Under the pieces are notes generated by a model. It ran no database searches, was not told the origin of the DNA, and saw only the letters and a program-made list of their open reading frames with translations. The position numbers and the translations under genes were made by a program. 60,144 nucleotides of DNA from an uncultured Candidatus Saccharibacteria bacterium (GTDB lineage: Bacteria > Patescibacteriota > WWE3 > UBA101185 > UBA10185): NCBI GenBank assembly GCA_964490125.1, contig CAZBAJ010000006.1, positions 1 through 60,144 of the forward strand, written 5' to 3'. Below are positions 3,001-60,144 of the stretch, piece after piece; position 1 is the stretch's first letter; every line of letters begins with the position of its first letter.

Positions 3001-4484
3001 GCGCGCCAGGTATAGCCTTTAGGACAGATTTGGATACCGGTCTTTGGTCTTCTGGCGACAACACTTTGAATTTATCGACTGGGGCAACAGAAGCTATGCG
3101 GATTTCCAGCGCAGGATTTGTGGGCATAGGTACCACGGCTCCAACCTATCCGCTTTCCGTAGGAGGGGATAGCGCCCTCATTGCTAACGACACCGGTAAC
3201 CTAACCATTACCCCTGCGTCAAACCTAATAATAAGTAGCGGTAGTATTGGAGTGGGTACAACCGCGCCGGGCGCAAAGTTAGAGGTAGTTGGCGGGGAGG
3301 TTAGGGTAGCAACCTTGGCAAGTGCCAACTACTATGTTTGTGTAGACGCAAATGGCGAGTTATTTGAAAGCGCCACCGCCTGTGCCGGCTCCGATATTAG
3401 GTTAAAGGAAAATATTAATCCGTTTGCCTCGGCGCTTGAGGGTGTAATGGCCCTTAACCCCATCACTTTTAATTGGAAGAATAAGCAAGAATCTGGTTCA
3501 CAGTTAGAAGTTGGTTTTATTGCGCAGGAGATGGAAAAAATTTTCCCTCAAGTCGTGCGCACTAATCCGGATGGCTTTAAGGGAATAAAGTACGATGTTT
3601 TCTCCGCGGTGCTTACCAAAGCCATTCAGGAACAAGAACTTAAAATTTCAGGAATGGACGACTTTATGATGCAAACTAACCAAACTTTGGAGGCTCTGTC
3701 TACCACCCAAGAGGAAAATTCAAGGCAAATTGCCCAAATTCAATCTTTGTTGGATGTATTGGGAATCCAAGACCCGTCCCAGTCAAGCGAGTCGTCAGAG
3801 TCCTCACAGTCCGTCGGACTTGCTGGCATCCTAAATGTCAATCTGCTAAACAGTCTACAAACTATGTATGACAATATTGTCCAGCTAGTAGAGGCTTTAG
3901 GACTTAAACAGGTGGATGGGGAGCTTGTAGTAGAAAGCCCCATGACCGTTTTAGGTGACGCAAGTTTTGCGGATGTTAATATTTCTGGCGATTTAATGGT
4001 CGGACTGCTAGAAGTAAATTCTTTGGAGAACTCTATAAATGTAATTGGACCTTCCTGTGTTGGCACAGCAAGTGAAGAAGACAAAGCGACATTAAACGAC
4101 GAGATATGTAAATCACAGACAATATATTTGCAAAAGAACCTAGCTGGAAACATTAACATGTTTAACGGCGCAATTGTATTTAGTCCTAATGGAAACATTA
4201 CCGCGGGAGAAATTGACGCTAAAAAACTCGTTGCCCAGGTATATGGAATAAATAGCATCGGTCAAAGCGTAGGGGAGGGGGTCATTCCTGCCGGGGAAAC
4301 CAATATCGTTATCACCTCGTCAACTGCCCAAAGCAATTATAAAGTGTTTGTAACGGCAACCTCTAACACGGGGGGCGTGGAACTGTTTGTTAAAGAAAAA
4401 TCGCAAGGGGATTTTGTGGTCGCGCTTTCTGGAATCTCCGCCACGGATATAAAGTTTGACTGGTGGGTTGTTCGAGTAGATTAA
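3..4484 (+). CDS. Giant repeat-rich surface/tail-fibre-like protein with C-terminal peptidase S74 intramolecular chaperone domain; 5' end lies outside the window
   Basis: The frame of ORF 330..4484 is open back to position 3. Many VGIGTTxP repeats; S74 motif SDIRLKENI...LNPITFNWK...VGFIAQEME, followed by a coiled coil. Confidence 0.85.
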   Translation, partial: TITPASNLIINNGSVGIGNTSPSYALDVAGTGNFTGDLRLTGAFYDTSASAGTSGQYLKSTATGTAWATLTPGSETLPTGTEGQTLYYNANTSLWTASSSLFYDDVTSRLGVGTTAPAYKLDVNGDIRIASGSKLIGATQSFIDTNRHGFLNQTETSMSFDGTKIFTLADAGSGWSYYRSGIKYTITGNKTIDLTTVDNPLVDGTTYYIYIDSTTGALSAASSSWTLNDTKVPVATVLWNNTLTPKYQLAEERHTVLIDRRTHYWQHFLVGAKAVVAGAIDPASYALNTDTNVSKTFSIAQTTFADEDLVQTLSALPDPNGTAEDYVVFYRTGASTWAWKNSNMPFVYNVGNTNDRIQYDNNGTMTDSIANRWYNSYVLFTNFQGSARYVVIPGRNVFTSLANAQAEAPSSFSFAGFPVQEAQIAYRITWTTTNSTSQGKCRLAATPQSINLSAISTVSSGSSVDHNSLAGLQGGASNEYYHLTSAQQLGLTTVGAGYVPYATSEGVLGNSSIFETGGSIGIGTTSPGEKLEIVGNLKFSGTDPNVSTTTGFDFDLGDSAGSYNFDIRNSGDVNLLSINSLGGLILDGTTGSSGVFNFAPTTTTDAFTINKSGAGTGAVFRVNDAGAGDISPFIITSTGLVGIGTTAPGNLLEIVGTSNHLSLTYDADNYNVFSVASDGTLSHINNGTTVATYSESTINFNVPSSFNVVGDVNMAYNLVMENPVSSAISFAGAGTVATTSPTDNLNLTLSAANLGTVFVDDTLTLSGVIQPATDSTSAIKFQSALGANILSIDTTNGWVGVGTTSPTAKLTIARDFTGSGVTGYGFNVIATDSTNNANTDYGVYSSLALTGNAAKTGVGLYSSLSTASTTADTLIGADITTSTSGIITTGTRSIYGIRSQPASTGASTGGTTNVYGGYFKAGGTVGTGGTINSYGLYVANGTMNTTGTTKNIGLYVESPTGATTNYAAIFAGGNVGIGTATPLALLDVNGVGAFGLGTVSAPGIAFRTDLDTGLWSSGDNTLNLSTGATEAMRISSAGFVGIGTTAPTYPLSVGGDSALIANDTGNLTITPASNLIISSGSIGVGTTAPGAKLEVVGGEVRVATLASANYYVCVDANGELFESATACAGSDIRLKENINPFASALEGVMALNPITFNWKNKQESGSQLEVGFIAQEMEKIFPQVVRTNPDGFKGIKYDVFSAVLTKAIQEQELKISGMDDFMMQTNQTLEALSTTQEENSRQIAQIQSLLDVLGIQDPSQSSESSESSQSVGLAGILNVNLLNSLQTMYDNIVQLVEALGLKQVDGELVVESPMTVLGDASFADVNISGDLMVGLLEVNSLENSINVIGPSCVGTASEEDKATLNDEICKSQTIYLQKNLAGNINMFNGAIVFSPNGNITAGEIDAKKLVAQVYGINSIGQSVGEGVIPAGETNIVITSSTAQSNYKVFVTATSNTGGVELFVKEKSQGDFVVALSGISATDIKFDWWVVRVD

Positions 4485-4512: not shown

Positions 4513-4695
4513 ATGGATAAAATAATCTTGACTAAAGGTGGCACCCCATTTGCTACGCTAAAAGCCTCCAGAGAAGAAAAAAGAAAGCTACTTGCAAACT
4601 GCGCCGGTGCTTGGGCTAATACAGAGCTAGATAGCGATAAGTTTTGGGCTAAACCGTTGGTCAGAAAGTCCAAGAAGGCTATACCTAAATTATAA
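4513..4695 (+). CDS. Short antitoxin (Phd/YefM-like, N-terminally reduced)
   Basis: 60 aa with an IILTKGGTPFA motif; its stop overlaps the start of the downstream PIN gene. Confidence 0.6.
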   Translation: MDKIILTKGGTPFATLKASREEKRKLLANCAGAWANTELDSDKFWAKPLVRKSKKAIPKL

Positions 4696-5144
4696 TGCTA
4701 AACCCGTATCTACTAGATACATCTATTATAGTGATGTGCTTGCGCAACAAGCTCTCATTTGATCATCTTTTGTCGACTTATGGGGGTAGCGACATAACAT
4801 CGTCCATGGTGTGCCTGGCGGAGTTGTATAGCGGTGTTTTTAAGTCAGCAAGAAAAGAAGAAAACGAGCAAAAAGTGCTGGAGTTTTTTAGTGGACTAGA
4901 TGAAGTCTTTGGATTAGATGTTACGGTTGTTAAAAAGTTTGGGGAGATAAAAAATCAACTAGAAAAAGCAGGTAACAACATAGAGGACTTTGATCTTTTG
5001 ATAGCGGCCACTTGTCTAGCACATGGTTGCGTTTTGATTACATTAAATACTAAGCATTTTGAACGGGTTCCAAACCTAGCCACGGTTACGCCAAAGTTAC
5101 CATCTTTATCTTATGCACAAATGACGAGGTTTGGTAGGGTTTAA
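4695..5144 (+). CDS. vapC: VapC-family PIN ribonuclease toxin
   Basis: YLLDTSII, SSMVCLAELYSG, DFDLLIAATCL, LITLNTKHF motifs. Confidence 0.9.
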   Translation: MLNPYLLDTSIIVMCLRNKLSFDHLLSTYGGSDITSSMVCLAELYSGVFKSARKEENEQKVLEFFSGLDEVFGLDVTVVKKFGEIKNQLEKAGNNIEDFDLLIAATCLAHGCVLITLNTKHFERVPNLATVTPKLPSLSYAQMTRFGRV

Positions 5145-5219: not shown

Positions 5220-6734
5220 ATGCCCGCTGGTAAAAAACTTGCCTTACTCACCTTACTAACAGCTTTTTCTTTAGCAACTTTCTGTGTCACAGCATTGGCA
5301 ATTAATACCAAGTTTAATGGCACGACGGGGAAGATACGGGCGATAGGGGAAACGGGGATGGTGGACAAAATAGGGGAGGTGGCAGGACTTGAAACCACCT
5401 CGATGGGTCAGGGCATTTTAGAAGACCAAGTGGCTTGGCAATATACCCAACAAACGCCAGATTACACCGCCTCTTTTGCCGTCACCCAGCAACAAACCAT
5501 AGTCAAACTCCAAAAAGCAAATTTTACGGCAATTTTTAGCCAAAATTTGCAAAACCCCACTCTCCAAAGGGTGTACGATAAGGACAGTCAAGATAATTAT
5601 GACAACCAAACCAATCAGACTGGTCAACTAGAAAAAATCCAAAAAACCCAACAAGTCCACCCAAAGTACATTTTTACCGATACTGTCACCAACACTCAAT
5701 ATGTCTACCACATAACGCCCCAAGGTCTAAAAGAAGACATTATTTTTTCAAGTCGGCCAACCGCGCTATTTTTACCGCTTACTGTGCAAGCGCCGGGTTT
5801 AATTATGCAGTTTGACGACGGGGGGAAGCCTGTTTTTTACGACTCTGCCATGCAGGAGCAATTCCATTTAGAAGCGCCTTGGGCAAAGGACGCTAAGGGT
5901 AGCCAAACCACCGCTTTGTTTTATGCCCAGGCAGAACCGTCAAAAGACCCTAGTGTTAATAACCTTTCTTTGGTATTAGATACCGCGTGGTTTGCCGACC
6001 CGGCTAGAGTCTACCCGGTAATAGTGGATCCCATTGTTTTTTTTAGGGGTATTAATTTGCGCGGGGTTAATGTTAACCGCATTCCTCCAACCACCTGTAC
6101 AGCTTATACCGGTTGCGGTGAGGGTTTTGATATTACCTGCGTTCACACTAAATATAACGGTGTGGCACCTGTGGCAAAAACCGTAATTTATAAAACAGTG
6201 CAATCAAATTTAACAGGTACCAATATGTGCTGGCTGGCTCAAAATTTAGGGGCTACAGATCAAGCAAGCTCTGCTACGGACAATGACGAAGACTCCGCCG
6301 GTTGGTACTTCCAGTTTAACCGCAAACAAGGGTTTAAACATACCACCACCAGAACTCCCGCCACCACTTGGATACCAAGCATAAGTGAAAGCGCAAATTG
6401 GGCGGATGCCCAAAACCCTTGCAAACTGGAACTGGGCACAGATTGGCGGTTGCCTACCTCCACGGAGTGGCAAACGGCTGACGCTAATGGTGAGGTTGGC
6501 GGATGGGATAATTATAACGAGACTTACGCGTCCCCCCTAAAACTCCATGCAACCGGCTACATCGATAGCTCCTCTGGAGCCCTCGCCAATCGCGGTAGCT
6601 TCGGCAGCTACTGGAGTAGTACCCAGCACTCTGCTACTAACGGGTACTACCTCAGCTTCGCCAGTGGCAACAGCAACCTGAGTGGCAACAGTAAGGCCCG
6701 CGGTTTTCCCGTCAGGTGCCTTAGGAATCTCTAA
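5220..6734 (+). CDS. DGR target protein 1: N-terminal signal/TM segment, shared scaffold domain, C-terminal FISUMP-like CLec domain containing VR1
   Basis: CWLAQNLGA...WRLPT...YWSST...PVRCL motifs; the last ~60 codons align to TR. Confidence 0.9.
   Translation: MPAGKKLALLTLLTAFSLATFCVTALAINTKFNGTTGKIRAIGETGMVDKIGEVAGLETTSMGQGILEDQVAWQYTQQTPDYTASFAVTQQQTIVKLQKANFTAIFSQNLQNPTLQRVYDKDSQDNYDNQTNQTGQLEKIQKTQQVHPKYIFTDTVTNTQYVYHITPQGLKEDIIFSSRPTALFLPLTVQAPGLIMQFDDGGKPVFYDSAMQEQFHLEAPWAKDAKGSQTTALFYAQAEPSKDPSVNNLSLVLDTAWFADPARVYPVIVDPIVFFRGINLRGVNVNRIPPTTCTAYTGCGEGFDITCVHTKYNGVAPVAKTVIYKTVQSNLTGTNMCWLAQNLGATDQASSATDNDEDSAGWYFQFNRKQGFKHTTTRTPATTWIPSISESANWADAQNPCKLELGTDWRLPTSTEWQTADANGEVGGWDNYNETYASPLKLHATGYIDSSSGALANRGSFGSYWSSTQHSATNGYYLSFASGNSNLSGNSKARGFPVRCLRNL
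6548..6722 (+). repeat. DGR variable repeat VR1
   Basis: Ungapped 175-bp alignment to TR 11761-11935: 15 mismatches at TR adenines plus 5 non-adenine mismatches confined to 6552-6598. Confidence 0.95.
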
Positions 6735-6806
6735 CATGGTTGGTAGCGTACCTCTTAGTCCCGCCAAAGGCGGGACCTTGATTTATTTGTCAATTTGACT
6801 ATTTTG
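6723..6806 (+). repeat. 84-bp tail after VR1 (IMH, stop codon, hairpin), identical to 10622-10705
   Basis: Base-for-base identity AGGAATCTCTAA...GACTATTTTG. Confidence 0.95.
6758..6776 (+). promoter_or_regulatory. DGR target-recognition hairpin after VR1
   Basis: GTCCCGCC-AAA-GGCGGGAC, perfect 8-bp stem 35 nt after the VR end; absent after TR. Confidence 0.85.
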
Positions 6807-6852
6807 AATTTTTTCTCTCCCCCCTTGAATTAGCCAACGGGCTTTAGAAGAG

Positions 6853-6928
6853 TGTAAGAGCGGAAGGCGTGTACCCCAAAATGCCAAAAATCAATGTTTA
6901 CAATTAAAATAAAACCCGCTTTTGGCGG
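6853..6928 (+). repeat. Direct repeat, left flank of NYN module
   Basis: 6853-6904 matches 7623-7674 at 49/52; similarity continues to 6928/7693 with a 5-nt indel. Confidence 0.9.
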
Positions 6929-6930
6929 AC
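6911..6930 (-). terminator. Probable intrinsic terminator of NYN gene
   Basis: Minus strand CCGC-CAAAA-GCGG-GTTTTATTTT immediately after the NYN stop. Confidence 0.5.
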
Positions 6931-6931
6931 T

Positions 6932-7537
6932 TTAAGGTGAGTATGACTTGACGACATCTGCATCGTCAATGAGTATATTTTTACTCGTGGTGTATATCAG
7001 ACCCTTGTTGGGAGAGCTCTTGAAACCCAGATATACCACTTGGATTCCTCGTGCAGTAGCTTCTTTAATAGCGGGCTGAAGGTCGGAATCAGAACTGCAG
7101 AGTATAACAGTGGTCACCGCTTTGTCGCAAGCCGCTAATACTAAATCTACAGCGATTTTCACATCCACACCTTTTTCATTAAAAACATAGTGTGGATTAT
7201 TAGCCGTTAATGCTTTGCCGACCGTACTGGCTCTAACACTACCGGAAATGATGTACTTGTAACCCTTTTTTTCCAAAGTAGTTTTTAAAATACGCTGGAT
7301 TTTAATTAACTCCATCGACTTGTTCTTAAATGCTGGATGGAGCTGGATTTTTGCAGAATAATACCTATGCTCTTTAATTTTATAGTTGGCTAAAACGGTG
7401 GTAAATAATTTTACGATATCGATATTCAAGATGGTTTTGCTTGATACTGTAATACCGGCACCTCTTAAAACGCCCGTTACTTTGTGTCTAAAATTTTCTC
7501 CGTCTATGAACAGGAAGTTTGTATTTGGTATGGTCAT
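6932..7537 (-). CDS. NYN/LabA-DUF88 (PIN-like) ribonuclease
   Basis: FIDGENF, EKGVDVKIAVDL, SSDSDLQPAI motifs. Confidence 0.9.
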   Translation of the reverse strand: MTIPNTNFLFIDGENFRHKVTGVLRGAGITVSSKTILNIDIVKLFTTVLANYKIKEHRYYSAKIQLHPAFKNKSMELIKIQRILKTTLEKKGYKYIISGSVRASTVGKALTANNPHYVFNEKGVDVKIAVDLVLAACDKAVTTVILCSSDSDLQPAIKEATARGIQVVYLGFKSSPNKGLIYTTSKNILIDDADVVKSYSP

Positions 7538-7544
7538 ATTACAT

Positions 7545-7584
7545 AAAACCCCGCCGAGCGTTAAGCATAGGCGGGGCGTTGATA
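7545..7584 (-). ncRNA. Putative short terminated leader/antitoxin RNA upstream of NYN
   Basis: Between the promoter and the ATG, minus strand CCCCGCC-14 nt-GGCGGGG followed by TTTT. Confidence 0.5.
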
Positions 7585-7589
7585 GCTAT

Positions 7590-7618
7590 CTTATATCCTA
7601 GTTTTATCTTAAAGTCAA
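7590..7618 (-). promoter_or_regulatory. sigma70 promoter of NYN module
   Basis: Minus strand TTGACT (7618-7613)-17 nt-TATAAG (7595-7590). Confidence 0.75.
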
Positions 7619-7622
7619 GTTT

Positions 7623-7693
7623 TGTAAGGGCGGAAGGTATGTACCCCAAAATGCCAAAAATCAATGTTTACAATCAAAACCCACTTTTGGAGG
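7623..7693 (+). repeat. Direct repeat, right flank of NYN module
   Basis: Copy of 6853-6928, period 770 bp. Confidence 0.9.
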
Positions 7694-10633
7694 TTTTTTG
7701 CTATACTTATGTTAATGCCTAAAGTCAAAATAAAATTTATAGGACTGGCAGTAGTAACTGCTTTAATTATTGCCTTGATGTTTGCGTTTGTAGGTGTAGG
7801 GCTTGGGCTAGTAGGTAAAAATTTGCCTTTTGCCCGGTTCAATACTATCTTTGGGTTTAAACAGGGCATTTTTGACGATCCAAGAAAAGATAAAAACCTT
7901 ACCACCGATCAAATAAATGCCTTGTCTCTCCTGTCGTCAAACTACTTACAAACAGAGGTTGTCTCCAGCGGTAATACAACAATAACCTTTGCCACCACAC
8001 AAGATGCCGTCCACACCCGCATTAAGGAACCTAACTTTGAGGGTCTATTTATAGAACCCATGAATCAGCCAAAAATGGAGGTTTTGGGAAGTCAGTCAGA
8101 AAATCAGGTGGACAATCGCGACGACAATCAAACGGACAAAAAATCAGTCAACCAGTATGTTTTTACGGACAGTCAAACGGGGACTAAATTTGTCTATACA
8201 CTAAAAGAAGACGAGTTGAAGCAGGACATTATATTGCCCCAAAGTCCTCAAGCCAGCCAGTTTACGGTTTATGTTGTAACAAAAGGTATGGAAGTTGATA
8301 TTGATCAAAAGGGCAGGGCGGTTTTTGCGGACGCGCAAGGGCTTGCGCGGTTTATTTTAATTGCGCCGTGGGCAAAAGACGCGGGCGGTAGTGAAACCAA
8401 AAAGCTTTCTTATAAACTAAACCAGGCAATTTTGTCGCAGGAAGACTTAGCAAGCAGTACGACTTTAGCGGATGGGGCGGGTGTCGCAACAAAAGCAACA
8501 AATATACCCAATACAGTTAAGGACGAGCAACTTGGCGGGGGATTTTCTAAATCGTTAGACACCCAAAATGTCCAAAAATTAGTGGCAGAAGGAAGTCAGC
8601 TGTTTAACCTTGAACTTGTGGTGGATGAAGAGTGGTTAAAAAGTCCACAAAGGGTTTATCCCATAACCATAGACCCCAGCGTGCAAATTGGTACACCGCT
8701 TAATTATTCCCAGCAGTCCAAATACTGTCCGCCCGGCAATACAGAAACAAATTGTGATGCGCTATACCAGCCCGCGCCACTAGCCGAGTATTATTTTGAC
8801 GACGCCACGGGTACTACAGTTAAGGACTCTACCGCCAACGGTTATACGGGCACTTTTACGGGTAGCGGAACCGGTGGTACTACATGGACACGCCAGGGCA
8901 AAATTAACTTTGCCGGGCTTTTTAACGGCACAGACGACTTTGTGGATGTAGGCACAGGTCCTACTGGCATAAAAAGCGTGGGTTTTTGGGTGTATCCCGC
9001 CACCACCACGGAATATTTTGTAGACTTAAACGGCTCCGCTTATATTTGGGCAAACGCGGGCACGCTAACGGCAACAGGCTTTACCAGCCCGACTGTTTAT
9101 ATTAACGGCGTTAAAGCAACAACCATTGAGGCAAACAAGTGGCAGTATGTTGCGGTAACTTCTGCCACCGCTGTGGACGCCACAGATTTAGATTTAGGAC
9201 GACTAGAAGGCACGGATTATTTTGCCGGCAGACTTGACCACGCAAGGTTTTATAACTATGTAAGGACGCCAGCGCAGGTAGCGTGGGATTTTAACGCCGG
9301 CGCGCCTGTAACTTGGTACAAATTTAATGAAAACACAGGTACTGCTATTGGCGACTGGGGCGTTGGGGGGGATGGTTACCGTGGTAATAACTTAACTTTA
9401 ACCGTGGGAGCCGGGGGAACTTATGATACCGCAACCCAAGTTTGGGCAAACGGCAATCCGGGTAAAATTGCCATCTCTATGGATTTAGACGGCACAGACG
9501 ACTACGCTTCTACCGCCAATGTGGCACTGCTTGCTTCCAATTCTACTACTTACACTAATTTATCTTGGGGGGCGTGGGTTAAACCTAGGATAACCGTTAC
9601 CCGTACAATAATCCATAAAAATAATGAGTTTAGGTTAAGGCTAACGGATGTTTCTGTGCCATCTTGTCAAATATACGCAAGTAGCGCATGGCAGACGGGG
9701 GCGGTTTCCGGTGGCGTAATTCCAACAAATTCATGGTCACACATATTATGCGCTTACGACGGGGCAAATATAAAAGTGTATGTTAACGGGGTCTTGCGTG
9801 GTACACAGCCGTTAACAAACGCGGTAACTTCTACCAGCGCTACTGCCATAAATGTAGGACGGGACAGCGGTGGTAGCGAGTATTTTAGTGGGGCAATTGA
9901 TGAGGCCCGCGTGTACTCATACGCGTTAACACCTATCCAAGCCAAAACTGCTAAAAACGATGGCATTGTAGCCTATGGGCGCGCCCCCGTTACCGCGGAA
10001 CTTCCACAAAGTTTTATTTGTGGCAAACCCATTACTGTTCAACATGTGGCTAGTAACGGCGTTGCCCCGGTAGATAAAACCGTAAGTTACGGTACAGTGC
10101 TTACGGGTATTGGCGGTACGGGTGACAAATGCTGGATTACCCAAAATTTAGGGGCTACTAACCAAGCAAGCACGGTTAGTGACGCTACGGAGGCGTCCGC
10201 AGGGTGGTACTGGCAGTTTAACCGCAAGCAGGGCTACAAGCACGACGGTACTACCAGAACACCAGCTACTGCCTGGAATGCCACCGAGGATAACACTTAT
10301 ACGGGCTGGGACCCGGCAAAAGATCCATGCGCTTTAGAATTAGGTGCGGGTTGGAGGTTACCCACTTCCGCGGAGTGGACTGTAGCAGATGTTCCGTGGA
10401 CAACTTGGCAAACTCCCGGGCCCTGGGATTTACCATTAAGAATTCATGCAGCCGGCTACCTCGATAGCTCCTCTGGAGCCCTTACCTATCGTGGTACCTT
10501 CGGCTCCTACTGGAGTAGTACCCAGTCCTCTGCTACTAACGGGTACCGCCTCCGCTTCGGCAGTGGCTACAGCACCCTGGATTTCTTCAGTAAGGCCAAC
10601 GGTTTGCCCGTCAGGTGCCTTAGGAATCTCTAA
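7664..10633 (+). CDS. DGR target protein 2: TM anchor, shared scaffold, LamG/ConA-like domains, C-terminal FISUMP-like CLec domain with VR2; true start probably ATG 7715
   Basis: LamG-like motifs (WQYVAVT, FAGRLDHARFYNY, WSHILCAYDG, FSGAIDEARVYSYAL); C-terminus aligns to TR; TATACT box 7 nt before ATG 7715. Confidence 0.9.
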   Translation: MFTIKTHFWRFFAILMLMPKVKIKFIGLAVVTALIIALMFAFVGVGLGLVGKNLPFARFNTIFGFKQGIFDDPRKDKNLTTDQINALSLLSSNYLQTEVVSSGNTTITFATTQDAVHTRIKEPNFEGLFIEPMNQPKMEVLGSQSENQVDNRDDNQTDKKSVNQYVFTDSQTGTKFVYTLKEDELKQDIILPQSPQASQFTVYVVTKGMEVDIDQKGRAVFADAQGLARFILIAPWAKDAGGSETKKLSYKLNQAILSQEDLASSTTLADGAGVATKATNIPNTVKDEQLGGGFSKSLDTQNVQKLVAEGSQLFNLELVVDEEWLKSPQRVYPITIDPSVQIGTPLNYSQQSKYCPPGNTETNCDALYQPAPLAEYYFDDATGTTVKDSTANGYTGTFTGSGTGGTTWTRQGKINFAGLFNGTDDFVDVGTGPTGIKSVGFWVYPATTTEYFVDLNGSAYIWANAGTLTATGFTSPTVYINGVKATTIEANKWQYVAVTSATAVDATDLDLGRLEGTDYFAGRLDHARFYNYVRTPAQVAWDFNAGAPVTWYKFNENTGTAIGDWGVGGDGYRGNNLTLTVGAGGTYDTATQVWANGNPGKIAISMDLDGTDDYASTANVALLASNSTTYTNLSWGAWVKPRITVTRTIIHKNNEFRLRLTDVSVPSCQIYASSAWQTGAVSGGVIPTNSWSHILCAYDGANIKVYVNGVLRGTQPLTNAVTSTSATAINVGRDSGGSEYFSGAIDEARVYSYALTPIQAKTAKNDGIVAYGRAPVTAELPQSFICGKPITVQHVASNGVAPVDKTVSYGTVLTGIGGTGDKCWITQNLGATNQASTVSDATEASAGWYWQFNRKQGYKHDGTTRTPATAWNATEDNTYTGWDPAKDPCALELGAGWRLPTSAEWTVADVPWTTWQTPGPWDLPLRIHAAGYLDSSSGALTYRGTFGSYWSSTQSSATNGYRLRFGSGYSTLDFFSKANGLPVRCLRNL
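10447..10621 (+). repeat. DGR variable repeat VR2
   Basis: Ungapped 175-bp alignment to TR: 21 mismatches at TR adenines (all in AAY codons) and one T>G. Confidence 0.97.
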
Positions 10634-10705
10634 CATGGTTGGTAGCGTACCTCTTAGTCCCGCCAAAGGCGGGACCTTGATTTATTTGTCAATTTGACTA
10701 TTTTG
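10622..10705 (+). repeat. 84-bp tail after VR2, identical to 6723-6806
   Basis: Base-for-base identity. Confidence 0.95.
10657..10675 (+). promoter_or_regulatory. DGR target-recognition hairpin after VR2
   Basis: GTCCCGCC-AAA-GGCGGGAC. Confidence 0.85.
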
Positions 10706-10768
10706 TTTTTTTCCCCTACAATGCCCGCGGTTAGAGATAAACGCTAGAGCTCGCGTAACCACGGTTAC
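10694..10768 (+). repeat. 75-bp direct repeat (promoter plus leader hairpin), left flank of DUF3800 module
   Basis: 73/75 identical to 11545-11619; contains TTGACT-17 nt-TACAAT and GTAACC-AC-GGTTAC. Confidence 0.92.
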
Positions 10769-10794
10769 ATTTAACTGATGCCCCAAAAGTCACC

Positions 10795-11445
10795 ATGGAA
10801 AATGCCACAAAACCTAAAAGAATTTATATATTCCTTGACGAATCCGGCACCCTTCCCGATCCCAAAGATACCGTAGTTATTGTTGCTGCGGTGGGAACAG
10901 TTCAACCACAGCAACTATCTAGGGTAACCACTAAGACCAGAAGCCACTTACAAAAAGGTAAAAATAAGTCATCGGAAATTAAATTTTATAATGCTGGGGA
11001 TAAAACTCGCATTACCTTTCTTAAAGAACTTATGGAAAAAGACATCCAACTGTTTACTTTAACTATTGAAAAGCCGGGTCAAAGTATACTCGATACACCA
11101 GAAAACTTTGCTCTTTTATGTTGGCTTCTTTTAGAAGAGTGTTTTTTATTTTACGGTCAAGAAAATTACGAGGTAGTTTTTGACAAACACTTTCACAAGA
11201 AAACAGACAGAGAGGTTTTTGATGCTGGGCTTATGGAGTTAATCGGTAGAAAGCTCTCTATCATCCATGCGGATAGTGTCAATGACACGCGGGTAAATAC
11301 TGCCGATATGGTGGCAGGTAGCATTCTATACTATAGAACCGGGAAAAATAAACAGTTTTACGAGATGATTAAAGAAAAAATTATTAGCGAAAAAGTTTTG
11401 CACTGGAAAGTGGCAAAGAAAAGTCTATTTAGGTACGGAAAGTAA
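10795..11445 (+). CDS. DUF3800 domain protein (putative nuclease)
   Basis: N-terminal IFLDESG and C-terminal DS...TADMVAGSI motifs. Confidence 0.8.
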   Translation: MENATKPKRIYIFLDESGTLPDPKDTVVIVAAVGTVQPQQLSRVTTKTRSHLQKGKNKSSEIKFYNAGDKTRITFLKELMEKDIQLFTLTIEKPGQSILDTPENFALLCWLLLEECFLFYGQENYEVVFDKHFHKKTDREVFDAGLMELIGRKLSIIHADSVNDTRVNTADMVAGSILYYRTGKNKQFYEMIKEKIISEKVLHWKVAKKSLFRYGK

Positions 11446-11492
11446 CAAAATCTCGTCGAACCGATGCAAGCATCCATCCAAACGAGATAAGT
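11446..11492 (-). ncRNA. Putative small structured RNA convergent on the DUF3800 gene
   Basis: ATCTCGT/ACGAGAT 7-bp stem (11450-11488) enclosing GATGC-AA-GCATC; T4 tract follows on the minus strand; own promoter upstream. Confidence 0.6.
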
Positions 11493-11498
11493 GTGATA

Positions 11499-11527
11499 AT
11501 TCTATCAAGTGGATACATTAAAGTCAA
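11499..11527 (-). promoter_or_regulatory. sigma70 promoter for the DUF3800-adjacent sRNA
   Basis: Minus strand TTGACT (11527-11522)-17 nt-TAGAAT (11504-11499). Confidence 0.75.
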
Positions 11528-11544
11528 ATTTTAGTCTACACTCC

Positions 11545-11619
11545 TTGACTATTTTGTTTTTTTCTCCTACAATGCCCGCGGTTATAGATAAACGCTAGAG
11601 CTCGCGTAACCACGGTTAC
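11545..11619 (+). repeat. 75-bp direct repeat, right flank of DUF3800; contains the promoter of the TR-avd-RT transcript
   Basis: TTGACT (11545)-17 nt-TACAAT (11568-11573); 73/75 identical to 10694-10768. Confidence 0.92.
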
Positions 11620-11760
11620 GCTTGGAGAGCGTGTTAGAGTGTGGTTACCCACCCCGCTTTAGCGGGGTTAAAAAAGAAGACTACGCGTCTGGAAACTTAC
11701 CCGTAGTCTCGCAAAATTTGGTGCAACAGCCAAACATTAGTGGTGACTTTAGCGCTAGGT

Positions 11761-11935
11761 TGCAGCCGGCTACCTCAATAGCTCCTCTGGAGCCCTTACC
11801 AATCGTGGTACCAACGGCAACTACTGGAGTAGTACCCAGAACTCTGCTACTAACGGGTACAACCTCAACTTCAACAGTGGCAACAGCAACCTGAATAACA
11901 ACAGTAAGGCCAACGGTTTTCCCGTCAGGTGCCTT
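11761..11935 (+). repeat. DGR template repeat TR
   Basis: 49 adenines and 15 AAY codons in the VR frame; in-frame TAG directly upstream (non-coding); 3' end GGAGACTCTAA differs from VR AGGAATCTCTAA (IMH*/IMH). Confidence 0.97.
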
Positions 11936-12020
11936 GGAGACTCTAAGTCTTTAGCCCCTGCCTCCTGTCCAAGTCCTACCAAATTCTGTCCACCAAAATA
12001 TTATTATTAACTAAAAGCTT

Positions 12021-12404
12021 ATGGCACTATATACAGCCTTACCCGTCTATAAAAGAACCTACCAACTATTAATGGAGCTAATTACCACCTGCGCGCTTTT
12101 GCCCAGGCTGTACAAGCATACTTTTGGTGAACGCATTCAGGAGGAAGCCATAGAAATGGTCCTTGATATTTACAAATCCAACTCTTCTTACAGCAAGGTG
12201 GACTATATTGGCAAAGCCCGTGAGCATGTAGAAACCTTGCGCCTGCTTATAAGGCTTTTGCACGACACCAAGAAGATCACCCAAAAGCGCATGATTTACC
12301 TAAATACTTATATAGAGGACATTAGTAAGCAGTTAACGGGTTGGCAAAAAAGTAGTGGGACTATAAAGCCGTCCGATTTACCGGACTCGTTATCTACAAA
12401 TTAA
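12021..12404 (+). CDS. avd: Avd-like four-helix-bundle DGR accessory protein
   Basis: LPVYK...LPRLYKHTFGERI...LRLLIRLL...SKQLTGW pattern; located between TR and RT. Confidence 0.88.
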   Translation: MALYTALPVYKRTYQLLMELITTCALLPRLYKHTFGERIQEEAIEMVLDIYKSNSSYSKVDYIGKAREHVETLRLLIRLLHDTKKITQKRMIYLNTYIEDISKQLTGWQKSSGTIKPSDLPDSLSTN

Positions 12405-12412
12405 GACCAAAT

Positions 12413-13800
12413 ATGTCAAATATCGACAGACATACCAATCTAACCAACCACGCCAACCATACGCATATGCCTAATATGCCTACTAACAAGTTTGCTAATA
12501 CACCTAATACATCCAATACATCCGATACACCCAATTCAACCGCTTCTGGAGATCCCGCGGATTCTCTCATAAACGATCTTTTTACCGCGTACTATTGCGC
12601 CCGCAAAAACAAACGCAACACTTTTAATCAGCTAAAGTTTGAGTACGACTATGAAAGTAATTTGTTTAAACTTTACCGGCTTATTTTAAGTCGTACCTAT
12701 AAACCCTTGCCGGAAATTGCTTTTATTGTAAATAAGCCCGTAAAGCGGGAAATTTTTGCCGCGGATTTTAGAGACAGAGTCGTCCACCACCTGATATTTA
12801 ATTGTTTAAACCCTATTTTAGAAAAGTATTTTATTAACGACTGTTATTCTTGTCGGATAGGGAAGGGGACCTCTTACGGAATTAAACGCGCAGTTAAGCA
12901 TATGCGGGCGTCATCAAATAATTATACGGAGGATTGCTATGTTCTAAAGTTGGATATTCAGGGTTATTTTATGAGTATAAATAAGACTATTTTGTATGGG
13001 GCGGTTAAGGGTTATTTGGCTAAAGAAAAGGCTAAAAGGGGTGTTTTACCGTTTGACGAGGATTTGGTGGACTTTTTGCTAAAGGTGATTATTTTTAACG
13101 ATCCCACCAAAAATTGCCGATTTAAGGGTTGGCCACAGGACTGGTGCGGTCTACCAAAGTCCAAGAGCTTGTTTTATGCCGAGCCATGTTGCGGTTTGCC
13201 TATTGGTAATTTAACCAGTCAGCTGTTTGGCAATGTTTATTTAACAGGGTTTGACCATTTTGTTAAGCGAAATTTAGCCATTAACTATTACGGTCGGTAT
13301 GTGGACGACTTTGTTTTAATGCATACGGACGAGCAGTATTTAAATTCGCTTATACCCGTAATGTCTAGTTTTTTAGTGTCGGTTTAAAACTTACCTTGCA
13401 TCCTCATAAGGTTTATTTTCAACATTATGCCAGAGGACTAAAGTTTTTAGGCGTTATTATTAAGCCTGGCAGAATTTATATTGGGTCACGGGTTAAGGGG
13501 AACTTTTACCTCGCTATTATGGAGCAAAATAGGGTTTTAGATCAGCCGGGTTTGTGTCGGATCGAGTTTTCCCGTCAAGAGGAGTTTTCTTCACAATCGT
13601 TAGTTTTTAAGCAACGCAAGGATTGTAACACGGTTAATGTTGTTGCTCCTTCCGTGACGGAAATAAAGGGTTTTATTAGCGTCATGAATTCTTACCTAGG
13701 GTTGATGAAACACTATCAAACCTATAAATTGTGTCGTAAGTTTGTGCTTAAAAACCTAGACCCCTGTTGGTGGGATTATGTTTACTTAAAACCTTTGTAA
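12413..13800 (+). pseudogene. DGR reverse transcriptase split by one -1 frameshift (ORFs 12413-13387 and 13369-13800 in the -1 frame); ~462 aa if joined
   Basis: RDRVVHH, LKLDIQGYF, GLPIGNLTSQLFGN and YVDD in the first ORF; LTLHPHK...GLKFLG and NSYLGLMKH in the second. Confidence 0.9.
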
Positions 13801-14022
13801 GAGTGGGATGCGTCTACCCCAGAACGAGATAACATTACCAAACCTCCAAAATATCCAGTAAAGTAACCTTTAACGATCTGCGCACACCGGCTGGATAGAT
13901 GTTGTAAGATTAAAACCCTACACTTCCCGTATTTAAGGTAGAAACCACAAAGAACCCTCTGCGGATCTTCTCTTGAATGTCCTTCGAGTCCTTATGCCGA
14001 TAACTCTTAGCTAGGGTCGTCT

Positions 14023-14900
14023 TAGATATTAATTAGATGCCACCTAAATAGAGGTAAAGTTTTGCAACTGATCTTTTGTTTATGCAGAAGAATAAAATAT
14101 GCCCCAAAGGGCACATATTTAAACGAACTAAGTCCCGTATTCCGTCAATTTAAGATTGTTACTAGAGCAAATAAAGTATGACAAATGCTTGTTAGTTCAC
14201 TTATAAAAATACGCGAACTATTTCCGTCCTGTAATAACAACAAAACTCACATAATGTTAAAAAATAAGTGAACTATTTTGGGAGCCTGGTTTTAAGGTTG
14301 TCAAGATAACCTAAAAACACAGACACATAAAAACATATTCAAACACCCAAACAAACATCTAAATACAAAAACCTCCACCCAGCCACCCAAGATAAACAAA
14401 CACTCATATAAATACATACATACATACATACATACATACATACATACATACATACATACATACATAAACAGACAGATTATTAGACGGGTAATAAATAAGT
14501 AAATACAAAAATACAAACTAACCCAAACACCCAACAGCATAAACAACAAAAACCAAAATTAAATTAGAAAACTAAAACACCAAAACTAAAACACCTAAAA
14601 ATATAACTATTACTGCCAATATTAAACACTCCACCGCCGTGACCGTGATAACAGCCACCGTAGCCTATGATATTTAAGAACTAGGGTAGTTCGTTAATTA
14701 TTTTAGAAAACTAGGTATTTGCTTTAACAACAGCTTAAAAATAGTTCGCAAATAAATATAACTGAACAATGTCACAAATGTCATACAGTTAACGCCGTAG
14801 TAAAAGCCTTAAATCTATAAAAAGCAGTTTATTGTTCGTTTAAATATAGGGTCTAAGACCTAATAAAAAAAGAACCTGCGACGACAAAAAATACTATAAT
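14023..14900 (-). repeat. Long non-coding repeat element, copy A (inverted relative to B and C)
   Basis: Both arms match 16393-17255 in reverse complement; 14-bp inverted repeat 14115-14128/14834-14847; seven TAGTTC/GAACTA boxes. Confidence 0.88.
14413..14464 (+). repeat. (TACA)13 microsatellite
   Basis: 13 perfect tetramer units counted. Confidence 0.97.
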
Positions 14901-14950
14901 ATCCAGCGCGAAGGGTATAACATGTAAGTTGATTTTGCTAAAATAACCCT

Positions 14951-16336: not shown

Positions 16337-16392
16337 AACTACGCCAGTTTATCTTAAAAGACTCTGTTTTGCAACTTGTAGTCTTGTCGCAT

Positions 16393-17255
16393 TAGATAGT
16401 ATTGTTCGTCATCTTAGGTTCTTTTTGACTAGGTCATAGACCCCATATTTAAACGAACAATAAACTACTTTTATTAAATTTAAGGCTTTTACTACGGCGT
16501 AAACTTTATGACATTTGTAACATTGTTCGGTTATATTTTTTTTGCGAACTATTTTTAAGCTGTTGTTAAAGCGAATACCTAGTTTTCTAAAATAATTAGT
16601 GAACTACCCTAGTTCGTAAATATCACAGGCTACGGTGGCTATAATTACGGCTCTACAGGCATGCTTAACTTTCTTGGGTATTATTGTACAGTCTTGGTAA
16701 TAATAAGTTGTCTCGGTGTCTGGGTGCCTAAATGTGTTTGGATATGTATTTATTTAGGTTTTTGTTGTATTTGAGGGTTTCAGTAAGTACTCGTTTGTTT
16801 ATGTATTTAATTGTTATAGTAGCAATGTATTAATTTAAGTTTTGTTTGTACTGGGTGTTTGGGCAGAGATATTGCTATTTAGGTGTTTGAGTATGTATTT
16901 ATGTGTCAGCGTTTTTAAGTTGTATTGACAGCCTTAAAACTATACTCCCGACATAGTTCACTTATTTTTTAATGTCATGGGGATTTTGTTGTTATTGCAG
17001 GAAGGAAGTAGTTCGCGTATTTTAATAAGTGAACTAACGGATGATTGTCATACTTTATTTATTGTAGTAACAACTTTAGATTAACAAAACATGGCTATTA
17101 GTTCGTTTAAATACCTGCCTTTTGGGACATACTTTGTTCTTTTGCTTAAACAAAAGATCAGTTGCAAAACCTTACCCCTATTTAGGTGACAAATAATAGT
17201 ATCTAAAAAAGGCAGCTAAAAAAATGCCGTTTAGACGACATCAAATTAATATCTA
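16393..17255 (+). repeat. Long non-coding repeat element, copy B
   Basis: 13-bp perfect inverted repeat 16446-16458/17101-17113; outer 10/11 inverted repeat 16393-16403/17195-17205; seven TAGTTC/GAACTA boxes. Confidence 0.88.
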
Positions 17256-59771: not shown

Positions 59772-59981
59772 TTACTTGTGATAATATAGCTCTAACGCCT
59801 CATTTAAATTGCTTAACGCGTTTTTTCTAGTTTTACCAAAGCTGGCAACATCCACATCAAGGCATTGGGATACAAAGTAACGCCCTTCTTTCCAAATTGA
59901 GAACTGGTGGTGTTTTCTAGGGTTTTGTTTTTCCATTCCTTTATTCTACTACGACGCGGATTTTAACAGAAGTCAGCGCAT

Positions 59982-60144
59982 TAGATAGTATTTTATTGTC
60001 ATCGTAGATTCTTTTTTGGTAAGGCCACAGACCCTATATTTAAACGAACAATAAACTACTTTTATTAAATTTAAGGCTTTTGCTACAGGGTTAACTGTAT
60101 GACATTTGTGACATTGTTCAGTTATATTTATTTGCGAACTATTT
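59982..60144 (+). repeat. Long non-coding repeat element, copy C (cut by the window end)
   Basis: Matches the left arm of copy B; 22-bp ATATTTAAACGAACAATAAACT is identical in A, B and C. Confidence 0.88.

Follow-up and report, generated by a model that had tools for sequence, protein, structure and literature searches.

The window, by which we mean the whole stretch of 60,144 nucleotides that was analysed, is chromosomal DNA of a Patescibacteria (Microgenomates-like) bacterium, with fmt, def, dprA, topA, rpsB and tRNA genes as neighbours. Its plus strand carries, between 5.2 and 13.8 kb, a diversity-generating retroelement (DGR), in which target gene 1 with its variable region (VR1) is followed by target gene 2 with VR2, the template region (TR), the accessory gene bAvd and the reverse transcriptase (RT) gene. 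Two genes that do not belong to the DGR are located inside it: a NYN-domain gene on the minus strand between the two targets and a DUF3800 gene on the plus strand between VR2 and TR. Each lies between long direct repeats, both of which are copies of local DGR sequence, and each is accompanied by a short hairpin element behind a promoter.

The repeat around the NYN gene (D5) covers 76 alignment columns, residues 6853–6928 against 7623–7693, with 85.5% identity, one indel of 5 nucleotides and a period of 770 (blastn E 4e-19); its ungapped core of 57 nucleotides is 93% identical. The repeat around the DUF3800 gene (D4) is 75 nucleotides long (10694–10768 and 11545–11619), 97% identical and has a period of 851 (blastn E 5e-31). 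Both repeats, with these periods, had been reported in the original prediction, which was made from the letters of the window, and the alignments bear it out. There is no relationship between the two repeats. The copies of D4 differ at 2 positions and those of D5 at about 11; a divergence of 3% against about 15% indicates two separate events of different age, in agreement with the independent insertions that had been proposed.

D4 begins with a plus-strand sigma-70-type promoter, TTGACT-17-TACAAT, which matches the consensus at 10 of 12 positions. In the first copy (10694–10768, plus strand) this promoter, at 10694–10722, and 46 nucleotides of DGR leader follow the hairpin behind VR2 and stand upstream of DUF3800. 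The second copy (11545–11619, plus strand) contains the promoter and the start of the leader of the TR-avd-RT unit, divergent from the small-RNA promoter of the DUF3800 module; as it precedes the structured leader that runs into TR, it is assigned as the promoter of this unit. The end of D4 falls inside a leader stem formed by GTAACCAC and GTGGTTAC, of which the second copy has both arms and the first only the 5' arm. An origin of D4 through the RNA and cDNA of the DGR itself was rejected, since the repeat includes the −35 and −10 boxes, which are not transcribed.

The first copy of D5 (6853–6930, plus strand) is the left repeat of the NYN cassette, and its 3' end (6910–6934, read on the minus strand) forms the terminator hairpin of the NYN gene. 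Relative to the second copy, two substitutions (CCCAC..GGAGG to CCCGC..GGCGG) complete the terminator stem. The second copy (7623–7697, plus strand) is the region upstream of target gene 2, including its GGAGG ribosome-binding site, and is placed back to back with the NYN promoter. As a promoter, D5 gave a weak match only (ATGCCA-18-TAAAAT), in the first copy. A partial third D5-like copy, identical to the first at 21 of 26 positions, is found at 13796–13821 (plus strand), where the RT gene stops and a strain-specific segment of 1122 nucleotides starts.

At both right junctions the minus-strand promoter of the module and the plus-strand repeat of the DGR stand back to back, with a gap of 3 nucleotides for NYN and 17 nucleotides for DUF3800. 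Promoters of the form TTGACT-17 bp-TA(T/G)AA(G/T), firing into a hairpin at each right edge, had been predicted; both were located, each with a hairpin and a T-run, and among 21 loose promoter matches in the 60 kb of the window they are the only ones to lead into such a structure. The 10-mer TTGACTTTAA, shared by the two right edges, is not significant alone (2 matches, a number reached by 9 of 100 shuffles). Terminal inverted repeats were not found at the cassette ends, nor tandem repeats in or beside either cassette. The reported lack of integrase and transposase genes holds within 4.4–16 kb and among the scanned neighbours.

The NYN/LabA-like gene (6932–7537, minus strand) encodes 201 amino acids. 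The Pfam NYN match (E 4e-15) and the acidic motifs FIDGEN, GVDVKIAVD and SSDSD, all present, place the protein in PF01936. The gene is preceded by a promoter (7591–7619, minus strand; TTGACT-17-TATAAG) and a leader (7544–7586, minus strand), which contains a hairpin (7548–7577) and a U-run (7544–7547) directly before the ATG. The hairpin folds at −18.4 kcal/mol (z −1.8). It is kept in the related loci L034, L035 and L054 (numbers with L denote the loci compared), although the NYN protein of L054 is only 31% identical, and in L035 it shows two compensatory changes from C-G to U-A; for this and the other RNA element three sequences were compared. Being on the sense strand between promoter and start codon, the hairpin looks like a terminator-type leader, or attenuator, rather than an antisense RNA. 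More than 2000 homologues of the protein were found, mostly in Microgenomates. The nearest, in L034 (75% identical), has a match that extends from the −10 box almost to the stop codon, and it shares the TTGACT −35 box; its promoter has the same hexamers with a different spacer. In L035 the NYN gene (56% identical) adjoins a restriction-modification methylase gene. A sequence search of the PDB with the NYN protein gave no match, and PADLOC a weak one only, to HEC-09/NYN. In L034 (ENA ERZ25038516 NODE_42246), a 28-nucleotide RT fragment (positions 27–54, the CGLPIGNLT region, 93%) is located 12 nucleotides upstream of the NYN promoter, while a complete RT gene has its 3' end on the far side of the NYN gene; the pieces are not collinear, which suggests a past rearrangement around the gene.

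The DUF3800 module (10782–11533, plus strand), delimited by homology to L041, consists of a short 5' untranslated region (UTR), an open reading frame (ORF, 10795–11445, plus strand, 216 amino acids) and a convergent small-RNA gene. The protein scores above the Pfam cut-off for PF12686 (E 5e-5, 24.6 bits against 21), has the N-terminal DE motif of the family and, in an AlphaFold model with a pLDDT of 91.6, is predicted to have an RNase H-type fold: the best Foldseek matches of the model are archaeal RNase HII and human RNase H2A (E 6e-6, TM 0.5–0.57). Residues D15, E16, E61, D100, D130, H132, D138, H158 and D171 are invariant in 33 homologues. The description of both non-DGR genes as nuclease-like is thus upheld. 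A sequence search of the PDB with this protein returned no match, and PADLOC again a weak one only, to DUF3800_VII. The gene has 359 homologues, mostly in Microgenomates, and it is without a promoter of its own in L041, L048 and L051. The closest homologues of NYN and DUF3800 are found in Daviesbacteria, Roizmanbacteria, Shapirobacteria and kin.

The convergent small RNA (11446–11492, minus strand) contains a hairpin (11450–11488) and a U-run (11446–11449) and ends at the DUF3800 stop codon. Its promoter (11499–11527, minus strand; TTGACT-17-TAGAAT) matches the consensus at 10 of 12 positions and has counterparts in L041 (TTGACA-17-TAAAAT), L042 (TTGACA-18-TATAAT) and L048 (TTGACA-17-TATAAT). 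The hairpin folds at −18.2 kcal/mol (z −4.5), and the window, L041 and L042 share a consensus stem of 16 pairs, one of them compensatory. The RNA is 88–90% identical to that of L041 and L042, where the coding sequences are 84% and 63% identical, respectively. None of the Rfam DUF3800 models matches at the gathering threshold, nor at E values up to 10 over 6700–12100. The idea of nuclease and small-RNA cassettes therefore stands in so far as both are conserved gene-plus-RNA units, but the arrangements differ, with a sense leader for NYN and a convergent antisense RNA for DUF3800. That the RNAs regulate DGR RNA, as had also been suggested, found no support: predicted duplexes of each small RNA with the DGR leader and TR, the leader in the first D4 copy or the 5' UTR of target 2 are no better than those of shuffled sequences, and regulation through pairing by either small RNA was rejected on this ground.

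The DGR in which the two modules are placed is composed as follows. Target gene 1 (5220–6734, plus strand) ends in a Lcl_C/Fib_succ_major domain (Pfam) and contains VR1 (6548–6734), followed by a 3' flank (6735–6818, plus strand) with a hairpin (6758–6776) and the sequence TTGACTATTTTG (6795–6806), without a −10 box. Target gene 2 (7709–10633, plus strand, taking the start on record) contains Laminin_G_3 and a carboxy-terminal Fib_succ_major domain (Pfam) and has VR2 at 10447–10633; its 3' flank (10634–10693, plus strand) has a hairpin at 10657–10675, of which a homologue is present in L053. The remainder of the leader and TR occupy 11620–11946 (plus strand), where the leader is structured (z −2.7) and TR is 11761–11946. 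They are followed by bAvd (12021–12404, plus strand; Pfam bAvd E 1e-12) and the RT gene (12413–13800, plus strand; RVT_1), which is divided over two frames with a putative −1 shift at T_TTT_TTA (13369–13375). Between VR2 and TR, 22 mismatches are at TR adenines and 1 elsewhere, and another 2 differences are at the very 3' end, the point of divergence between VR and TR; in VR1, 16 mismatches are at adenines and 5 are not. Since the mismatches are mostly at TR adenines, the element looks active, at least on VR2. The 5 other differences of VR1 all lie within its 5' 50 nucleotides, as though rewriting continued only in the 3' part. The adenine-biased TR/VR pair, the DGR-type RT and Avd beside TR and the GC-rich hairpin 3' of each VR identify the element as a DGR, and its RT is 60–78% identical to many DGR RTs. 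The 72 nucleotides 3' of VR1 and VR2 are 100% identical (6735–6806 and 10634–10705), while the coding DNA just 5' of the variable regions is only about 73% identical, which points to strong constraint on the flank or to gene conversion there. Directly upstream of target gene 1, at 4513–5144, a PIN-domain gene (Pfam E 8e-14), the start of which is overlapped by an ORF of 60 amino acids, looks like a VapBC-type toxin–antitoxin pair; it is kept in sister strains (clusters with Logan members).

The most informative relative is L053 (GCA_023261265.1), with an RT 78% identical to that of the window. Here the end of the VR is followed by a hairpin (GTCCGCCGTAGGCGGAC), a TTGACA-16-TACAAT promoter, an unbroken leader, TR, avd and RT. 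Homology to the window starts exactly at 11545, and the leader is continuous across the point where D4 ends. Removal of residues 10769–11619 from the window reproduces this layout, so that the DUF3800 cassette with one copy of D4 appears as an addition. The check that had been suggested, a search for homologous DGRs with an empty site, thus succeeded for the DUF3800 cassette. The sister-strain contigs L052 (96.5%) and L055 (100%) break inside TR or D4 and are uninformative on the presence of the cassettes. Cluster look-ups gave no sister copy of at least 90% identity for NYN, DUF3800 or either target; as both targets are missing too, the absence of the cassettes from these clusters is likewise uninformative.

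RT-based scans of genome and metagenome collections yielded only Bacteroidota-type relatives (RT identity 71% or less), which serve as outgroups, not as empty sites; they lack NYN, DUF3800 and the promoter duplication. L056 (RT 62% identical) has a different DGR architecture and no cassettes. In all the Bacteroidota DGRs L001–L004 and L009–L012, the slot between VR and TR is filled by a conserved ORF of about 160–210 amino acids without a Pfam match, which may be an MSL-type or an undescribed accessory gene. That this ORF (about 167 amino acids) is a diverged DUF3800 was considered and rejected (blastp E > 0.6). In L011 (2908–4220), a further ORF of 163 amino acids is located between the accessory gene and TR and is flanked by arrays of repeats of about 50 nucleotides with the core CGTCCCGTAGGGACGCAATATCGGTAG; these include a direct repeat of 222 nucleotides with a period of 931, a different kind of bracketed gene inside a DGR.

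Outside DGRs, the nearest homologue of the DUF3800 protein (84% identical) is encoded in L041, behind the gene for a giant protein of the Peptidase_S74 type and ahead of a zinc-ribbon ORF. The nucleotide match to the window (82.7% over 753 nucleotides, blastn) extends from 10782 to 11533, while the segment between the repeats is 10769–11544; the homology stops within 12–13 nucleotides of the repeat edges. DUF3800 genes adjoin giant LamG/DUF2341 genes in L042–47, L048–50 and L051, and target 2 is itself a LamG protein. In Roizmanbacteria (L048/L050), direct repeats of about 150 nucleotides, 74% identical, bracket the DUF3800 gene; one corresponds to the 5' part of the coding sequence of the LamG/DUF2341 gene that follows, the other to the carboxy-terminus of an upstream ORF of 107 amino acids. 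In Daviesbacteria (L042–47), a NYN and a DUF3800 gene adjoin each other, with a giant LamG gene on either flank; both are followed by a convergent unit of promoter, hairpin and T-run, and the two promoters form a direct repeat of 37 nucleotides. In L042 (4881–5755) this promoter repeat has a period of 838. In the same locus (4021–4136), the last 24 nucleotides of a giant LamG gene, including the stop codon, are repeated 92 nucleotides downstream, around a hairpin-rich insert of about 68 nucleotides.

Taken together, these observations are probably best described as a working two-target DGR, the control regions of which have been invaded twice by self-contained gene modules that are common in the phylum. 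With considerable confidence, the NYN and DUF3800 modules can be regarded as secondary insertions; their genes belong, by homology, to large Microgenomates families that are mostly found outside DGRs. Each module would have been placed just downstream of a DGR control region and become bracketed by a duplicate, of about 75 nucleotides, of that region. The first would consist of the LabA/NYN RNase-like gene with its own promoter and terminator-like 5' leader hairpin, the second of a promoterless DUF3800 gene, with a predicted RNase H2-like fold, and a convergent, strongly conserved antisense RNA gene of about 50 nucleotides at its 3' end. The left copy of D4 would now drive DUF3800, while the right copy keeps TR-avd-RT expressed; the left copy of D5 would have been remodelled into the NYN terminator. 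Copies of the insertion in which the duplication was retained could have persisted because the downstream DGR unit keeps its promoter.

Provided that the promoters are active and the RNAs are produced, these RNAs may control their nucleases: the NYN leader would be an attenuator, whereas the DUF3800 RNA would regulate in cis as an antisense RNA or serve as a bound partner. The modules would then act for themselves, in defence or in an addiction-type role, and not for the DGR. RNA-controlled nucleases of this sort are a plausible function, with chances close to even or somewhat below, and service to the DGR is an unlikely one. The duplications may have arisen by widely staggered breaks with fill-in, by template switching during replication, or by Campbell-type integration, through homologous recombination, of a circle carrying one repeat; a recombinase encoded by the module would not be involved. 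The presence of DprA is consistent with uptake of DNA. The duplications would permit clean excision, but the near-identical strains, with contigs that end within TR or D4, gave no example of an excised or empty form. A more far-reaching proposal is that the modules represent a class of recombinase-less mobile gene cassettes in bacteria of the candidate phyla radiation. Their insertion sites, in hypervariable surface-protein and DGR loci, would be the ends of genes or positions just behind an active promoter, and 75–150 nucleotides of target would be duplicated, perhaps by way of R-loop- or RNase H-linked breaks or integration of a one-repeat circle. The cassettes would in this way gain a promoter from the host while the host gene stays active, and they could later be excised cleanly. 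We regard this proposal as speculative and rather improbable.

Several points weigh against the two insertions. L053 could equally have lost the cassette by a clean deletion between the repeats. For the NYN cassette no empty site was found, and there was no informative relative among those examined. A second suggested check, for long duplications around the modules at other loci, turned out in favour for the DUF3800 gene of L048/L050 (about 150 nucleotides), but the homologous modules in L041, L034, L035 and L054 proved to have no repeats at their flanks; the known cases of long duplications are three only, two in the window and one in L048. The first copy of D4 provides DUF3800 with the promoter and 5' leader of the TR RNA, which also fits co-option. 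NYN-type genes adjoin the RT gene at three of the five related DGR loci with visible flanks (the window, L034 and L054), an adjacency above chance, and a functional link with the DGR could be possible.

As an alternative to a cassette-specific insertion process, the genes may merely have come to lie between paralogous copies of control regions through ordinary segmental rearrangement. The locus is indeed rich in internal duplications, comprising the last 660 or so nucleotides of both targets, the 72-nucleotide VR flanks and three copies of TTGACTATTTTG. DUF3800 genes habitually follow LamG genes, and the DUF3800 gene may have been in place behind target 2, a LamG gene, before the VR module was grafted on. 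Of the parallels at other loci, the upstream copy in L048 could be a truncated paralogue, and the 37-nucleotide repeat in L042 is the modules' own promoter and not target sequence. Yet the repeat edges in the window fall within 3–13 nucleotides of where the conserved units of L041 and L034 end, both duplications are about 75 nucleotides long and directly at the insert, and taking away the insert with one copy gives the exact arrangement of L053, down to the leader stem that is halved in the first D4 copy. We therefore hold simple rearrangement to be doubtful.

A second alternative is that the genes are co-opted accessory factors of the DGR. In that case DUF3800 would strip the TR RNA from the cDNA:RNA hybrid, NYN would process DGR RNA, and the duplication would serve co-regulation. 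DGR RTs are not known to have an RNase H domain, and the modelled fold of DUF3800, similar to RNase HII and H2, might supply the activity; the TR RNA's promoter and first 46 nucleotides of leader now stand before its gene. In type VII retrons DUF3800 is found as a partner of the RT or fused to it (PMC7736814), and the NYN-type genes flanking the RT in L034, L054 and the window point in the same direction. This explanation is nevertheless an unlikely one: in L053, the RT of which is 78% identical, no DUF3800 gene separates VR from TR; relatives with about 70% identity have another accessory ORF and neither of the two genes; the closest DUF3800 homologues are outside DGRs, beside LamG or S74 genes; NYN runs antisense to the DGR from a promoter of its own; and the small RNAs have no complementarity to DGR RNA beyond that of shuffled sequences.

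Mis-joining of contigs, conceivable in a metagenome-assembled genome at a repeat-rich locus where sister contigs break at TR and D4, is extremely improbable, because the repeat copies differ at 2 and about 11 positions and hence are not collapsed, because ORFs, promoters and terminators are intact over all junctions, and because the independent Logan unitig L055, 100% identical from 11590 on, starts 30 nucleotides (k−1) inside the second copy of D4, as expected of a k = 31 graph at a true repeat.

The RT gene shows a further peculiarity. Its 0 frame ends with a TAA at 13385–13387 (…SSFLVSV*), while the −1 frame is open from 13369 and continues with the conserved motif GLKLTLHPHKVYFQHY. At the junction of the frames, the heptamer T_TTT_TTA (X_XXY_YYZ) is conserved in frame in five sequences, among them L052, L053, L054 and L034, the RTs of which have amino-terminal parts that are, where measurable, 70–96% identical to that of the window. 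The Bacteroidota RT relatives have one continuous ORF, and the RTs of L056 and L057 are split nearby but without the heptamer. The junction is a candidate for a programmed −1 frameshift, of which a literature search found no published report in a DGR RT; conserved as it is, it would add a new layer of DGR regulation.

Between the RT stop codon and a glycosyltransferase gene (GT2), the window has a non-coding, AT-rich segment of 1122 nucleotides (13792–14913), with an (ACAT)n run at about 14408–14470. In L052 (96.5% identical) 45 nucleotides take the place of this segment, and in L054 the RT–GT2 junction contains a NYN-like gene with its promoter and hairpin leader. As the window, L052 and L054 all differ here, the locus has its third variable site at this junction. 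Three copies of an intergenic repeat, about 90 nucleotides long and with about 83% column identity, are present at 14815–14911 (minus strand), 16384–16480 (plus strand) and 59969–60065 (plus strand); the first of these is the right end of the strain-specific 1.1-kb segment. A promoter region and a miniature mobile element are candidates for its identity.

If the proposed insertions are real, the control regions of DGRs would be hot spots for the arrival of unrelated nuclease modules, which duplicate the DGR promoter as they settle there; this is relevant to the evolution of DGR loci in reduced genomes. It also matters for the annotation of DGRs, because not every gene inside one is then an accessory factor. 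The flanking duplications of 75–150 nucleotides, should they prove general, point to an insertion route outside the known classes of mobile elements. For DUF3800–RNA pairs, the locus offers a compact and well-delimited example, in which the promoter is defined, the 16-bp hairpin exceeds the protein in conservation and the states before and after can be clearly compared, and the role of the RNA alongside an RNase H2-like protein becomes directly testable.

Compared with known systems, the modules share with type I and type III toxin–antitoxin loci a potentially harmful nuclease-type protein and a small RNA. In loci of the txpA/RatA type a convergent RNA overlaps the 3' end of the mRNA, and the DUF3800 RNA is placed in the same way. 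The toxins of type I systems, however, are short (less than about 60 amino acids), hydrophobic, membrane-active peptides repressed by an antisense RNA, whereas the proteins encoded here, of 201 and 216 amino acids, appear to be soluble enzymes; moreover, only DUF3800 has an antisense RNA, the NYN RNA being a sense leader. In type III systems the antitoxin is made up of tandem RNA repeats, which are cut by the toxin and encoded upstream of it with a terminator in between, while the NYN leader is a single hairpin. The toxin/RNA-antitoxin character that the original prediction gave the cassettes is not supported, as neither module fits the definition of either type.

Insertion sequences, miniature inverted-repeat elements and integron cassettes resemble the modules in being discrete units that occur in varied contexts, have direct repeats of target sequence on either side and are stacked at one locus. 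Target-site duplications of insertion sequences are 2–15 nucleotides long; the modules have duplications of 75–150 nucleotides and neither a transposase nor terminal inverted repeats. They differ from integron cassettes in lacking an integrase and a shared attC-like site, the repeats of the two cassettes being unrelated.

With the recognised accessory genes of DGRs, which are avd, HRDC, MSL and CH1 (Wu et al. 2018, PMC5758913), the two genes share their small size and their location between DGR components, and the VR–TR slot is also filled in the Bacteroidota relatives; they fall outside the known classes, though, and are not conserved across the RT lineage. DUF3800 proteins have been described as RNase H2-like (PMC7736814, PMC10910872) and are recruited in type VII retrons and in Cas12a2/a3 loci (PMC7736814, PMC10910872, PMC13594972), where, as in the window, they are found beside an RT or an RNA-guided effector, in defence-type contexts. 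Compared with type VII retrons, the RT here is of the DGR type, its nearest DGR relatives have no DUF3800, and the nearest relatives of the DUF3800 gene have no RT nearby.

The closest parallel is with the DUF3800 RNA motifs. DUF3800 genes are associated with 11 unrelated small RNA motifs (DUF3800-I to -XI), in either orientation and often with terminators (Weinberg 2017, PMC5737381). The pair in the window agrees with these in having a structured RNA beside DUF3800, on the opposite strand, with a terminator-like hairpin end and with an RNA more conserved than the gene. The pairing of DUF3800 with small RNAs is therefore already known (PMC5737381), and the DUF3800 unit is a new member of that class; in the absence of a match to the Rfam DUF3800 models, its RNA would be a further, undescribed motif. 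It differs in being an insert bracketed by a long duplication of a host promoter, which is not described for those motifs, and what appears to be new is the occurrence of such units as inserts that duplicate 75–150 nucleotides of promoter-proximal target and accumulate in DGR and surface-protein loci.

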